Below, in pieces: positions 4,537-15,970 of a stretch of DNA of 23,233 nt. A program made the translations under genes and the position numbers. This stretch comes from a virus (lineage: Duplodnaviria; Heunggongvirae; Uroviricota; Caudoviricetes): IMG/VR virus record IMGVR_UViG_2541047722_000009. One strand, given 5' to 3'. The notes under the pieces were generated by a model. That model did not search any database. It saw only the letters and a list, made by a program, of their open reading frames with translations, and was not told the DNA's origin. Position 1 is the first letter of the stretch. Every line of letters begins with the position of its first letter.

Positions 4537-4589
4537 GGGCGGCAGAGCAGTCACGGAGTAAAACTGATACCGCCAAACGTCACCAGAAA
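4537..4589 (-). ncRNA. dicF: DicF small RNA (antisense regulator of ftsZ and other mRNAs), processed from the dicB operon transcript
   Basis: Reverse complement of 4537-4589 reads TTTCTGGTGACGTTTGGCGGTATCAGTTTTACTCCGTGACTGCTCTGCCGCCC, matching recalled K-12 DicF, followed by a T-tract (4531-4536 on minus strand). Confidence 0.9.
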
Positions 4590-4927: not shown

Positions 4928-5149
4928 CTATTCACGCGGGTATGTAATCATTCTGGCAATGCTTAATGCCGCTGCTTTTTCCAGATTGGTGATATCCTGC
5001 TCCAGAGCGGACAGATTTTCAGCCTGCTTAGCCCTGGCTTCATTGGCCCATTTCAAATCCTGCGCTGCATTAATTTTCTGGCGCATCCACTCATAAAGTT
5101 CATCATTGGTATAGTCTGGCGCGATGATGACGGGTTCTCGTTTCTGCAT
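4928..5149 (-). CDS. ydfC: YdfC-like protein (Qin dicB-operon protein)
   Basis: 73-aa ORF with GAGGAA RBS. Synteny ydfA-ydfB-ydfC-dicF-dicB as in Qin. Confidence 0.7.
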   Translation of the reverse strand: MQKREPVIIAPDYTNDELYEWMRQKINAAQDLKWANEARAKQAENLSALEQDITNLEKAAALSIARMITYPRE

Positions 5150-5756: not shown

Positions 5757-6395
5757 TTAAATATTTTGTTGAATTTTAAAGCATACGCCCAATATGCAAG
5801 ATAGATCATCCAGCATAATTGAAGGGTAGCGAGGATTCGTGGGGACTAAAAGAATATCCGGCCCTTCTATCTCCAGTTTACGAATGACAGGTGTTGTGGT
5901 CCCTTTGGGTAAGGCAAGGACAATATTTCCTGGTTGTACGGTTCGATCGGGATCAACAAAAACTGTTGAACCATTTGGGATGGAAACTCCCCCACCAGAT
6001 GTTGACATACTGTCACTCTCTAGAACAACTGCAAAGGTATTGGCCGGGATTTCTCCGACAAGCTGCACACAAGAGGTTATTGAGGAATTTTTCATATAAT
6101 CACTCCAGCTTGCTGCCTGCTGAAGTGATAGTAGCGGAACCGTTTTTATCGGCGGTAAAGATAGATCAAGCGAATCACCTGTATTTAACTCTCCTCCATT
6201 AAGAAGCCAATTTTCGTTTACTTTCAATATTTTTGCCAGTGAACTTATGTAACGCGAGGACGGCGCTCCTCCACCGTTCATCCATTGACTTACGGAGCCT
6301 TTTGATGCGCCAGTGGCATTGACAAGGTCTTTGCCTTTCAGGTTTAGCGCATGCATACGTTGGGTTATGCGTTCAGATATTGTTTGCTTGTTCAT
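5757..6395 (-). CDS. cI: Phage CI-type repressor (N-terminal XRE HTH, C-terminal LexA-like S24 peptidase domain)
   Basis: 212-aa ORF. HTH region LKGKDLVNATGASKGSVSQWMNG. C-terminal SDSM…K (Ser-Lys dyad context) typical of S24 autoproteolytic repressors. Divergent from cro-like gene. Confidence 0.85.
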   Translation of the reverse strand: MNKQTISERITQRMHALNLKGKDLVNATGASKGSVSQWMNGGGAPSSRYISSLAKILKVNENWLLNGGELNTGDSLDLSLPPIKTVPLLSLQQAASWSDYMKNSSITSCVQLVGEIPANTFAVVLESDSMSTSGGGVSIPNGSTVFVDPDRTVQPGNIVLALPKGTTTPVIRKLEIEGPDILLVPTNPRYPSIMLDDLSCILGVCFKIQQNI

Positions 6396-8483: not shown

Positions 8484-8614
8484 CGAGATTAAAGTGCATT
8501 AGTTCAGATGCAAATTGACATTTTGTGGCACAGGGTAGAGCTAGCGTGGTTGTCCGCTTTGTGCCAATAGCGGACATTGCTGGCTCATGGTATGTTAGTT
8601 TAAGGAGGCAGGTT

Positions 8615-9637
8615 ATGCCCTGTATTTCGCTGTGGTATAATAGTTGCGCAATTGATACAAGGGAGCGTTACATCGTGAAAATTGTTTTCGAGGTTAATGG
8701 AAAGAAAGTTCCACTAAAATCTTTAAAATACATAAGCAAAAAAGATCAACTCGAAGTAATGAAAAACTGGTTCTTTGAAAACTTTGAAGATCCGGCAAAT
8801 GCTTGTCCGTATGAAAGTAGAGAAGGTGGCTATGCTTACATATATGGCGGGCCGTATGATGCGAGCGAAGAACTACAATCCATCTTCGGTCAATATGTTA
8901 AATCTGAGTATATTGAGGAATTAGTAGATGAATTACAAACACAATGTTTTGACTGGTCTGGAAACTCAAATAATATAGATGATTGGTACGATGATGATAT
9001 CTACGACGCTGTAACGTCTTCCGGTAATCCGTATTTAAAATTCATTGATAATATCGATAAAATAAAAAAACTTGCAAAAGATAAAACTGAACAACAGCAA
9101 AAAAACCACTTGCTTAGTTTGCTCTACACGAATGTTATTACAGCTTTGGAAACGCTTTATGTTGAGCTATTCATTAATTCTATAGAGAAAGATGATGTCT
9201 ACATAGCCAATTGTATAGAAAAAGGTAAGACTGAATTTAAAGTAAGCAAAGATATTGCTGCGTTGCCTTTCAAGGGTGAACCCATCGAGAAAATTAGGGG
9301 AGAGCTAATCAGGTCAATCAAGGAACACTTGATCAGTGCAAGCTGGCATAGCACTAAAAAGGTAATCGACCGCTATGAAGCTACATTCGATATAAAAGTA
9401 CAAAAAGACTGTCCGATAGAAGCTATTGAATTGGCAACCCTCAATCGAAATCACTTAGTGCATCGTGGTGGAAAGGATAAAGAAGGGAACCTCGTAGTGA
9501 TTACAGACCAGGATCTTGAAACGCTGATTGAAAATGCATCGAACCTGGCAATTATGCTCTACAACAGTTTAAATGTAGCAACGAATAAAACCACCATTTT
9601 GCAACCAGATGACAAACCGTTCATTCATGAATTTTAA
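8615..9637 (+). CDS. Cargo protein A of AT-rich two-gene cassette: uncharacterized protein with C-terminal R-x4-H (HEPN-like) motif; candidate abortive-infection/defense effector
   Basis: Start taken at ATG 8615 (AGGAGG at 8603-8608, 6-nt spacer). Alternative GTG 8675 (AAGGGAG RBS, preceded by extended -10 TGgTATAAT at 8633-8641). Track ORF begins at 8525. Motif LATLNRNHLVHRGG encoded at ~9446-9463 in a predicted helical C-terminal region. Sharp drop in GC from ~8640. Confidence 0.7.
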   Translation: MPCISLWYNSCAIDTRERYIVKIVFEVNGKKVPLKSLKYISKKDQLEVMKNWFFENFEDPANACPYESREGGYAYIYGGPYDASEELQSIFGQYVKSEYIEELVDELQTQCFDWSGNSNNIDDWYDDDIYDAVTSSGNPYLKFIDNIDKIKKLAKDKTEQQQKNHLLSLLYTNVITALETLYVELFINSIEKDDVYIANCIEKGKTEFKVSKDIAALPFKGEPIEKIRGELIRSIKEHLISASWHSTKKVIDRYEATFDIKVQKDCPIEAIELATLNRNHLVHRGGKDKEGNLVVITDQDLETLIENASNLAIMLYNSLNVATNKTTILQPDDKPFIHEF

Positions 9638-9652
9638 TAGCGCAGGTCATAC

Positions 9653-10654
9653 ATGGATATTCGCACACGAAAGACAAAATTTTTAGAGTCGTTAGATTCA
9701 ACTGAAGTGATACGCAAAGCAGTAAGTCTCGCTATAGATTGCATTATTGATAATCATAATAGTAATGAAGATACCCCCTTAGTTATTACCAGCTATGATG
9801 ATCTCTGTAGAATCCAGGTGCTAAATTATGTACAGGAGTTTTGCGAAGCTGCATTCCCTGATATGGATGAATATTACTTTAGTCCTAACATACTTCGCAT
9901 CAACGGCAAGACTAGTGAAGAAGCTTGTATTAACTTAATTAAACTCTTAAGAAGTACAAAAGGCATGCTATTCTGGTCCGATGCCCCATCGTGGTTCGCT
10001 AGCCTCCCCGACGGATTATTCCATGTTGTTAACATTGATCAAAAAATCGTTACTCGCGGCCTTAATAAGAAAAACTCTAAGCCGACAATAATCAATAAAG
10101 ATTACAGTGTAGATACACTACTATCAGAGCTATTTTTGAATGGCGCACACATGGAGCAACCCAACGTACACAACGTTTCTGAGGGAAACATGAAGTTCTA
10201 TGATGAATGCCATGCTGGATTAATCAGACCAATACCCGCTCCAATAGGCGCGTCATACGATGAAGAGATCACAATTAATTCTCCAGATTGGCAAAAGCTC
10301 GCGTGTGTAGCTTTACGCCGCTATCAGTCGAAGGAATGTCATGACGGAATGCAATGGGATACAACCGATCATGGTTGGACTGATGTAATCGCGTATCCAT
10401 TCGTCGAAGAAATACAATCAATGGATAATAGTGGTTATCGACAATGTTTAGTTGGGCTGGTCACAATAAACAATTCAAATGCAAATTCTCCGTACCTATC
10501 TACCGTTTGGATACATCCATTTTATCGCAGGAGAGGGTTATTAAGTAAGTTATGGCCAAAATTACAAGAGTTATATGGAAGTAACTTCGAAATTGAGCGA
10601 CCTAATGAAAATATGAAAGCATTTCTGAAAAGTGCGAAACACGCAGATTACTAA
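9653..10654 (+). CDS. Cargo protein B of AT-rich two-gene cassette: uncharacterized protein, C-terminal region with GNAT-like motif pattern
   Basis: 333-aa ORF 15 nt downstream of gene A (operon). AT-rich codon usage. C-terminal LVGLVTI…WIHPFYRRRGLLSKLWPKL…NENMKAFLKSA resembles GNAT beta4-alpha3 (motif A) and motif B. Confidence 0.75.
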   Translation: MDIRTRKTKFLESLDSTEVIRKAVSLAIDCIIDNHNSNEDTPLVITSYDDLCRIQVLNYVQEFCEAAFPDMDEYYFSPNILRINGKTSEEACINLIKLLRSTKGMLFWSDAPSWFASLPDGLFHVVNIDQKIVTRGLNKKNSKPTIINKDYSVDTLLSELFLNGAHMEQPNVHNVSEGNMKFYDECHAGLIRPIPAPIGASYDEEITINSPDWQKLACVALRRYQSKECHDGMQWDTTDHGWTDVIAYPFVEEIQSMDNSGYRQCLVGLVTINNSNANSPYLSTVWIHPFYRRRGLLSKLWPKLQELYGSNFEIERPNENMKAFLKSAKHADY

Positions 10655-10970
10655 TTTATGAATCAGTCTGTGGAGTTAGGGTTGGTGTCAACAAGTAGGG
10701 TAAGAGCCTCAACGTGATGCTATGCCGACCTGCTCCCTGAGAATTCACACAGAAGGCTGCTAGCAATGTCTGCAGATCGCTCAAAGCGGACTAGAAGGTT
10801 AGCTTGCGTCGGACTTGGCGTATTTAAAGAAGTGCTGGTGGTGACTGGTTGTTGTGTTCCATTTCTACAGAACAAAATCACAGAAACTATACCCAATAGT
10901 TATATTGAATCAATGATGAGACAGCCTCATATTTATCAGAACTGGTGTACGTCCAATACAGGAGGTTGTC

Positions 10971-11060
10971 GTGCTGGTTCTCAAATGTGCGCTAGCTATT
11001 GCGGCTGTAATGGCAATTTATTGTCTTGCTGTTGTTCTTATGGATCGCCTTTCTGATTGA
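10971..11060 (+). CDS. Possible small hydrophobic peptide (29 aa, MLVLKCALAIAAVMAIYCLAVVLMDRLSD)
   Basis: GTG start 5 nt after a perfect AGGAGG (10960-10965). Single predicted TM helix. Lies in a different frame from the Cys-rich 96-aa track ORF. No homolog recognised. Confidence 0.3.
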   Translation: MLVLKCALAIAAVMAIYCLAVVLMDRLSD

Positions 11061-11271
11061 TTTTATATTGGCGAGGTGACGGGAGTTAAGTAGAATTGCT
11101 GCGGGTGCTTGAGGCTATCTGCCTCAGGCATGAACACCAAAGGCAGATAGAGAAAAGCCCCAGTTAATATTACGCGTCCTGCAAGACGCTTAACATTAAT
11201 CTGAGGCTCAATCTATGAACGGCAAATCTAGGTTAGCCTCTTACGTGCCGAAAGGCAAGGAGAAGCAGGCT

Positions 11272-11427
11272 ATGAAGCAGCAAAAGGCGATGTTAATCGC
11301 CCTGATCGTCATCTGTTTAACCGTCATAGTGACGGCACTGGTAACGAGGAAAGACCTCTGCGAGGTACGAATCCGAACCGGCCAGACGGAGGTCGCTGTC
11401 TTCACAGTTTACGAACCTGAGGAGTAA
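11272..11427 (+). CDS. hokD: Hok/Gef family type I toxin (HokD/RelF-like)
   Basis: 51-aa product MKQQKAMLIALIVICLTVIVTALVTRKDLCEVRIRTGQTEVAVFTVYEPEE, near-identical to recalled K-12 HokD (RelF). AGGAG RBS. Internal Met of the 70-aa track ORF. Confidence 0.9.
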   Translation: MKQQKAMLIALIVICLTVIVTALVTRKDLCEVRIRTGQTEVAVFTVYEPEE

Positions 11428-15797: not shown

Positions 15798-15873
15798 GGC
15801 CCTTTAGCTCAGTGGTGAGAGCGAGCGACTCATAATCGCCAGGTCGCTGGTTCAAATCCAGCAAGGGCCACCA
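15798..15873 (+). tRNA. tRNA with CAU anticodon, most similar to E. coli tRNA-Ile2 (lysidine; ileX/ileZ-like); Met not excluded
   Basis: Manual cloverleaf: acceptor GGCCCTT/AAGGGCC, D-stem GCTC/GAGC, anticodon loop CUCAUAA, T-loop TTCAAAT, 3' CCA encoded. Anticodon arm matches my recollection of ileX. Confidence 0.85.
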
Positions 15874-15880
15874 TCACATA

Positions 15881-15957
15881 CCGCCATTAGCTCATCAGGA
15901 AAGAGCGCCAGCCTTCGAAGCTGGTTGCGCGGAGTTCGGGTCCCCGAAGGCGGTCCA
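15881..15957 (+). tRNA. tRNA-Arg (anticodon UCG), slightly non-canonical T-arm
   Basis: Manual fold: acceptor 6/7 bp, anticodon stem CCAGC/GCTGG with loop CUUCGAA, CCA encoded. T-loop TTCGGGT has G at position 58 and the T-stem has one mismatch. Confidence 0.65.
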
Positions 15958-15970
15958 TTATCTGTATCCT

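Follow-up and report, generated by a model that had tools for sequence, protein, structure and literature searches.

We analyzed a 23,233-nucleotide stretch of viral DNA (IMG/VR record IMGVR_UViG_2541047722_000009; hereafter the window) and focused on a low-GC unit of two genes, here called A and B, that lies between two hairpin inverted repeats. The window is a lambdoid prophage resembling Rac and Qin and integrated beside ompW in E. coli strains of the S88 type, which are extraintestinal pathogenic or avian pathogenic E. coli (ExPEC/APEC). Its genes are ordered integrase, exonuclease, dicB/ydfABC, repressor/cro, replication genes and a DUF977 gene, followed by the two genes in question, both labeled "hypothetical," and then by hokD, a DUF968 (ydfU-like) gene, rusA and Q. 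The slot occupied by A and B extends from the end of the DUF977 gene (8483) to approximately 10795, before hokD, and no integrase gene adjoins it. A and B are on the same strand, and the stop of A (9637) is separated from the start of B (9653) by a 15-nt spacer. GC content is 0.385 in 8552-10728, the lowest of any 2.2-kb stretch of the window, compared to 0.491 in the remainder; over the two genes it ranges from 0.31 to 0.44 and in their flanks from 0.50 to 0.56. An earlier note, made from the sequence alone, had reported a sharp drop in GC content and two open reading frames (ORFs) 15 nt apart, placed between the replication genes and hok/ydfU where Qin carries relBE. These observations were borne out, and in K-12 Qin relBE does adjoin hokD in this region. 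The note had drawn the unit as 8615-10654, which proved too short. The real unit spans 8552-10791, about 2.2 kb, and is bounded by hairpin inverted repeats of about 33 bp (Table 1).

Table 1. Features of the two-gene cassette, with positions given in the window
Feature	Position	Strand	Details
Left terminal inverted repeat	8552..8584	+	Hairpin GTCCGC-N12-GCGGAC at 8552-8575
Candidate extended -10 promoter, TGgTATAAT	8633..8641	+	Letters present; core conserved across diverged cassettes
Ribosome-binding site of gene A, AGGGAG	8660-8665	+	
Gene A	8675..9637	+	320 aa, WP_014639476.1; RefSeq start GTG 8675; homologs start at the equivalent position
Gene A, N-terminal alpha+beta domain, ~residues 1-115	8675..9019	+	HEPN/RES N-terminal domain 1 type
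Gene A, HEPN domain, ~residues 119-308	9029..9598	+	R258-N-H-L-V-H263-R264 at 9446-9466
Gene B	9653..10654	+	333 aa, WP_000354966.1; ORF and RefSeq annotation
Gene B, N-terminal alpha/beta domain, ~residues 1-180	9653..10190	+	Model pLDDT (predicted local distance difference test) 90
Gene B, GNAT-fold domain, ~residues 180-333	10190..10651	+	Beta4/alpha3 segment WIHPFYRRRG at 10508-10537
Right terminal inverted repeat	10759..10791	+	Hairpin GTCTGC-N12-GCGGAC at 10768-10791

The left end of the cassette reads GTCCGCTTTGTGCCAATAGCGGACATTGCTGGC and the reverse complement of the right end reads GTCCGCTTTGAGCGATCTGCAGACATTGCTAGC, with matches at 27 of 33 positions. Each end forms a hairpin with a 6-bp stem and a 12-nt loop, a pattern present twice in the window against 0.03 expected occurrences. 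Among most of the contexts compared in which A and B are paired, homology extends from 8552 to the hairpin at 10768-10791; it begins later than 8552 in the two most diverged loci (L130 and L131), and some copies carry a 45-bp indel at 10728. The outermost half-stems differ by context, and in one locus (L142) both have changed together (GGCGGC/GCCGCC). We recognized no transposase, integrase or target duplication at the cassette. When the joined flanks of one locus (L119) were used as the query, no empty insertion site was found in the plasmid or E. coli collections, and inspection of the cassette ends revealed no integron attC cores (RYYYAAC...GTTRRRY), the nearest sequence being GTTAGCA.

Among 5426 complete E. 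coli genomes, 205-209 (~4%) contain the cassette, the ExPEC/APEC reference strains S88, UTI89, IHE3034 and APEC O1 among them, and clusters with at least 90% identity come from Escherichia, Klebsiella, Morganella, Proteus, Enterobacter, Pectobacterium, Salmonella and Shigella. Its settings include a McrBC-type island of Serratia, where it lies between a DUF4942 gene and a gene for a McrB-like AAA_5 protein; positions between aldo-keto reductase and hydrolase genes and between LacI-type and LysR-type regulator genes; sites beside genes for a UvrD-like (Gabija-like) helicase, an HD/dGTPase-like protein, a DNA methylase and umuC; and plasmids of Citrobacter, Klebsiella and Providencia. GC content of the cassette is 0.38, and that of the host flanks varies from 0.43 to 0.62. 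The recurrence of one low-GC 2.2-kb unit across flanks of differing GC content argues that it is horizontally acquired cargo, as the earlier note had supposed. One further plasmid copy (H24) was discarded as a new context, being the same prophage segment. On an IncF conjugative plasmid of Klebsiella variicola (L272, 3653-7146), a 99.9% identical cassette lies between a relB gene and IS26, which suggests that IS26 captured a Qin-like prophage fragment. Separately, a 63-bp right-end segment (window 10727-10789) occurs alone, at 92% identity, on plasmid pEQ2 (IncHI1-type; L265, 6001-6063) as well as on some 23 further large plasmids, the majority of them typed as conjugative; there, a LacI-family regulator gene precedes it and a TniQ (Tn7-like) element is close by.

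The slot itself holds many other genes. Downstream of the same left hairpin, related prophages carry at least 19 different low-GC cargos (80 viral contigs; loci L155-L234 and L154), and the variable part stops inside the right hairpin, at the 3′ half ...TCGCTCAAAGCGGAC, in all 12 cargos checked. In phage Tritos, the same two hairpins enclose a different gene. When 20 cargo proteins were compared with PADLOC models, 10 had matches, to AbiH, PD-T7-1, Avs2, IetS, DrmD, PDC-S15, PDC-S33 and PDC-S39 (found in two cargos). As the cargos are so varied and include recognized defense systems, we conclude that the slot is a defense hotspot, in keeping with the earlier note, and that the hairpin sites are its exchange points. 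In E. coli K-12 Qin (L270), degenerate left-type and right-type hairpins (4982-5005 and 5973-5996) flank flxA and part of ydfV; they run opposite to the backbone and lie next to relBE-hokD.

Both genes are annotated as hypothetical in all records, neither has a functional name in NCBIfam, PADLOC or PHROGs, where A is the function-less family phrog_17908 and B the function-less family phrog_16994, and we found no literature naming either protein accession. A and B are thus uncharacterised genes.

The most likely start of gene A is GTG 8675, judging from the RefSeq start and from the starts of all homologs, which begin MK.VF; ATG 8616, the start used in the earlier note, was dropped on these grounds. 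That note had also proposed TGgTATAAT as a promoter, and here its two suggestions conflict, since the proposed promoter falls within the ORF that begins at ATG 8616. The letters are present, and the core TGnTA(T/C)AAT is kept in most diverged cassettes, including those that lack A. There is no good match to a -35 element, and a simple promoter scan did not list the site. Transcription of the cassette probably starts from this extended -10 promoter of its own.

The LNRNHLVHR segment of A had been singled out as a HEPN signature, and this assignment stood up well. In a 61-sequence alignment extending down to 26% identity, R258, H263 and R264 are invariant, as are W224, H225 and E159, and the N-terminal motifs WFxxNFEDP and GGPYDA are almost invariant. 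The arginine and histidine, spaced as R-x4-6-H (R258-NHLV-H263), are the residues that the earlier note called R308 and H313, numbering from the longest ORF (GTG 8525, 370 aa); the residues were right and the numbers change in the 320-aa protein. The domain has the four-helix up-down HEPN fold. A is therefore a predicted HEPN protein, a call backed by both the fold and the invariant motif residues. Its family placement is less direct. PF18870 (HEPN/RES N-terminal domain 1, or NTD1) scored 22.2 bits against a threshold of 27.4 on the window protein (E 2e-4), and PF18735 (RiboL-PSP-HEPN) was not reported by Pfam at E <=1. Among 122 homologous clusters (120 listed), many carry PF18870 and/or PF18735, with PF18870 above or near threshold; both domains were confirmed on homologs P0061 and P0095, and homologs with both are 30-60% identical to A. 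As the window protein is sub-threshold and its homologs carry the domains, membership of A in the RiboL-PSP-HEPN and NTD1 families rests on transitive homology. A sequence-profile search of PDB sequences, HepS included, found no solved relative of A. Gene A is under purifying selection, with a ratio of nonsynonymous to synonymous substitution rates (dN/dS) of 0.12-0.19.

NTD1 is also fused to a PIN nuclease in one protein (P0117) and, as Pfam defines it, to RES domains, a distribution that would make it a portable module on different toxic effectors (HEPN, PIN and RES). A swappable N-terminal domain is the usual layout of sensor-plus-effector proteins, and the N-terminal domain of A is a putative sensor or regulator.

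Gene B has a GNAT alpha/beta fold in its C-terminal half, as the earlier note had read from the letters. Pfam Acetyltransf_1 (PF00583) scored 19.9 bits on residues 264-311, against a threshold of 20.7, and the beta4-alpha3 segment is WIHPFYRRRGLL, in which H288, P289 and R292 are invariant. The canonical pyrophosphate-binding loop of GNAT motif A is Q/R-x-x-G-x-G/A. Motif A of gene B is R-R-R-G-L-L (family consensus RRxGKL), in which the arginine and glycine are kept and the last position is leucine or methionine. Structural neighbors lean to protein acetyltransferases, and a profile search of PDB sequences with B returned no match. The GNAT call is correct at the level of fold, and B probably transfers an acyl group. 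The N-terminal domain had no Pfam match, no PDB sequence match and no separate fold match.

An exhaustive profile search yielded only about ten full-length representatives of B at 50% clustering, and the family is confined to gamma-proteobacteria. Stand-alone proteins of 150-180 aa align to residues 180-333 (E 1e-37 to 1e-20) and lack the N-terminal domain. We conclude that B belongs to a distinctive, poorly annotated GNAT subfamily that gained an N-terminal domain, for which we found no prior description. Its dN/dS values are 0.20-0.43. Where B occurs without A, its neighbors include Abi_2, HigBA, an AAA_13 ATPase, a SUKH protein and a GmrSD_C protein, and relatives of B also adjoin P4-like or integrase cargo regions; these neighborhoods suggest a role in conflict. 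Pfam scarcely detects the stand-alone GNAT-like set (P0221-P0246, P0362, P0367 and P0368; loci L267-L269). One of its genes lies in an integrase/primase satellite-like element, close to a GmrSD_C gene, and another lies upstream of a gene for a PIN_12 protein.

The earlier note had proposed that A and B form a novel two-gene system. In support of that proposal, the spacer is 15-18 nt in every paired locus with flanks examined, in at least 10 contexts and down to 84% identity for A and 78% for B. The wider families tell a different story. We scanned one genome per species for the A family, which is encoded in 356 species genomes, and examined the neighborhoods of the 80 best loci. B was absent from 78 of the 80 and present only in an E. 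coli-like contig and in Serratia grimesii. An all-against-all comparison uncovered no conserved neighbor of the A family within 4 kb, the largest cluster comprising 6 of the 80 loci at variable distance. Conversely, homologs of B with 56% identity or less are never beside A. Co-occurrence is thus limited to a clade in which A is at least 84% and B at least ~73% identical, and it is not conserved across either family.

Three copies of B at 86% identity (L104, L105 and L126) lack A. In two of them (L104, 5817-7075; L126, 1422-2682), the leader (window 8552-8647), with the candidate promoter, is kept and joined straight to window 9576 onward, and in the third (L105, 5944-7076) homology to the window starts at 9596. 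All three retain the final 40-60 nt of gene A, a segment that is also native to loci with A only, indicating that they are deletion derivatives that lost A. B is intact in these A-deleted cassettes, with dN/dS values (0.25-0.41) in the same range as in pairs. The L105 cassette lies downstream of a P4-like primase gene, and the L104 cassette lies beside a gene for a 1197-aa P-loop protein and insertion sequence fragments. We also considered recurrent pairing of a ribonuclease (RNase) with a B-type GNAT as evidence of coupling and set it aside, as the pattern was inconsistent over three leads: an Abi_2/HEPN gene by a Marinomonas homolog of B, a PIN_12 gene after a small GNAT gene, and a 283-aa neighbor. 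The PIN_12 gene and the 283-aa neighbor are unrelated to A or to NTD1-PIN proteins.

We interpret the locus as a hairpin-bounded mobile cargo cassette in which two separable modules became linked, as two stacked genes able to work alone, a solo HEPN abortive-infection RNase and an independent acetyltransferase, and we rate the chance that this reading is correct as even. The comparisons show the domain folds, the invariant catalytic-type residues, the limits and mobility of the cassette, what the hotspot contains, the separability of A and B, and purifying selection. We infer the RNase and acetyltransferase activities, the trigger, the defense phenotype and the independence of function; location and domain type make a defense role for both genes probable. 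By analogy with known proteins, the N-terminal HEPN/RES domain of A would keep the RNase off until a phage product is sensed. The R258-x4-H263 site, presumably dimeric, would then cleave transfer RNA (tRNA) or messenger RNA (mRNA), and the cleavage would halt translation and abort infection, as with the prophage HEPN proteins HepS and Tha. B would be a GNAT-fold, acyl-CoA-dependent acetyltransferase with a novel N-terminal domain, acting as a second, independent conflict or defense effector that acetylates protein or aminoacyl-tRNA.

Several observations weigh against this interpretation. The case for phage defense by either gene comes from predicted folds and from location, and the argument from the hotspot is guilt by association, as such slots also hold non-defense morons such as flxA in K-12 Qin. 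The window protein A falls under the Pfam thresholds for both of its domains. PADLOC-DB v2.0.0 gave no significant match (best E 0.0086 for A, none for B). Acetyl-CoA binding by B is not assured, because its P-loop-like motif is R-x-x-G-x-L rather than the canonical form. Lastly, the pair and its fixed spacing hold over synonymous divergence (dS) of up to ~0.65, which could mean functional coupling and not mere linkage.

Such coupling would be expected if A and B formed an obligate two-component system in which B modifies A or its target, for example by an acetylation that gates the HEPN RNase, much as MNT AMPylates HepT in type VII toxin-antitoxin pairs, or in which both proteins are needed for defense. 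The operon layout with its 15-nt spacer, the constancy of pair and spacing through at least 10 unrelated contexts, and purifying selection on both genes fit such a system. We nevertheless consider it unlikely, given an A family in 356 species genomes with 78 of the 80 best loci devoid of B or any shared neighbor, a B that never adjoins A outside the ~73-100% clade, A-deleted cassettes with an intact and constrained B, and unrelated neighbors around the stand-alone 160-aa relatives of its GNAT half. A facultative interaction may exist; the data fit poorly with obligate coupling, or with a toxin-antitoxin relation, whichever gene is taken as the toxin. The latter relation would apply if the cassette were an addiction module or a stabilizer of mobile elements, with a HEPN RNase or an aminoacyl-tRNA-acetylating GNAT (TacT/AtaT-like) restrained by its partner. 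HEPN and GNAT are both known toxin folds, and the cassette adjoins hokD/sok and, on one plasmid, relB and pemIK. However, as each gene is found alone and intact, neither can be the indispensable antitoxin of the other. The cassette also contains no small DNA-binding antitoxin gene. GNAT toxins typically come with a DUF1778 partner, which B does not have, and they are about half as long as its 333 aa. We therefore view a toxin module as very improbable.

The remaining alternative places the cassette outside phage conflict, as lysogenic-conversion cargo in which B acetylates a small molecule (an antibiotic, polyamine or metabolite) or a host protein and A is an RNA-processing or regulatory HEPN protein. 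Some copies do lie between housekeeping genes with no defense neighbors, and one solo B lies between beta-lactamase and arabinofuranosidase genes. This explanation is also quite improbable: recognized defense systems dominate the slot, several solo-B and small-GNAT loci are in defense-island-like or satellite cargo regions, and the architecture of A is typical of conflict systems (PMC3710099). Overall, the preferred reading of two stacked modules leaves a sound candidate for defense genes in a hotspot, and, on the sequence comparisons, the proposed two-gene system is best lowered to two candidate single-gene modules whose coupling is unproven: the constant pairing and spacing stand, and the frequent occurrence of A without B, of distant B without A, and of A-deleted cassettes speaks against an obligate system.

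We also note a broader proposal, which we regard as unlikely: the hairpin repeats would define an undescribed family of recombinase-less cassettes that carry defense genes and swap via the hairpins among the prophage hotspot, plasmids and chromosomes, and the GNAT protein here would be a new anti-phage component, either an effector of its own or a protein that gates the HEPN RNase by acetylation or backs it up. We found no earlier description of hairpin-bounded cassettes, and their exchange sites are the most unexpected element of the locus.

Several other features of the window were recorded. Rfam matches comprise the sok antitoxin RNA (11103-11277, +), just upstream of and overlapping hokD; the small RNA DicF (4537-4588, -); two copies of the small RNA STnc100 (16123-16313 and 16591-16800, +); and three tRNA genes (15798-16044, +) 3′ of a DNA methyltransferase gene. 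A cysteine-rich 96-aa ORF (10766-11056, +) begins in the right hairpin and crosses conserved backbone 5′ of sok/hokD; related loci have a 67-78-aa ORF in its place, and the 96-aa ORF is probably not a real gene.

If gene A defends, it would provide the first tested function for a family found in at least 356 species across many phyla, and would offer a test of the HEPN/RES N-terminal domain as a phage sensor, extending the model drawn from HepS and Tha. To our knowledge, acetylation has yet to be established as an activity of anti-phage effectors. Together, B and its 160-aa relatives make up a GNAT subfamily, which recurs in defense-type neighborhoods and may represent a new defense activity. 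Carriage in ExPEC/APEC strains and spread at 90% identity or more over Enterobacterales mean that the cassette may affect the host range of therapeutic phages, and its hairpin ends provide a concrete handle on cargo exchange at a prophage defense hotspot.

Among known mobile elements, the cassette resembles integron cassettes, mobile insertion cassettes and elements like miniature inverted-repeat transposable elements (MITEs) in being short and recombinase-less, with imperfect hairpin inverted repeats, and in that the same boundary sites flank many alternative cargos. It differs from such elements in having no attC-type GTTRRRY core, no nearby integron integrase and no transposase.

We found no description of a HEPN plus GNAT defense pair in the literature searched, and the words "GNAT" and "acetyltransferase" are absent from the main text of the Vassallo and Rousset screen papers. 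The pair described here differs from the type VII toxin-antitoxin pairs HepT/MntA (HEPN-MNT) in that the partner is a GNAT protein and not a nucleotidyltransferase, and in that the genes are separable in nature. B shares with the GNAT toxins of type II toxin-antitoxin systems, TacT, AtaT and ItaT (PMC9177977), its fold, its carriage on mobile elements and a possible block of translation. It differs from them in its length of 333 aa, its extra 180-aa N-terminal domain, the lack of a DUF1778/ribbon-helix-helix (RHH) antitoxin gene and its atypical motif A (RRxGxL), and these toxins were not among its named top structural matches.

For gene A, we know of no member of the RiboL-PSP-HEPN family with a tested function, and none appeared in the papers searched. 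A resembles this family in its R-x4-H motif and through the homologs, 30-60% identical, that carry PF18735 and PF18870. Anantharaman et al. (2013, PMC3710099) defined the family computationally and described it as carrying an R-x4-H motif and as a distant relative of AbiD/AbiF. Solo HEPN defenses are of a known kind, and HepS is the closest tested analog of A. Encoded in a slot of the same kind in Gifsy-1, HepS acts alone as a HEPN abortive-infection protein; it is expressed constitutively, is non-toxic at rest, and cuts tRNA anticodon loops to abort infection (PMC13043305). Tha, a HEPN protein of an S. aureus prophage, is comparable to HepS (PMC11087260). Compared to both, the 320-aa protein A has a different N-terminal domain, of the HEPN/RES NTD1 type, and is encoded next to a GNAT gene.

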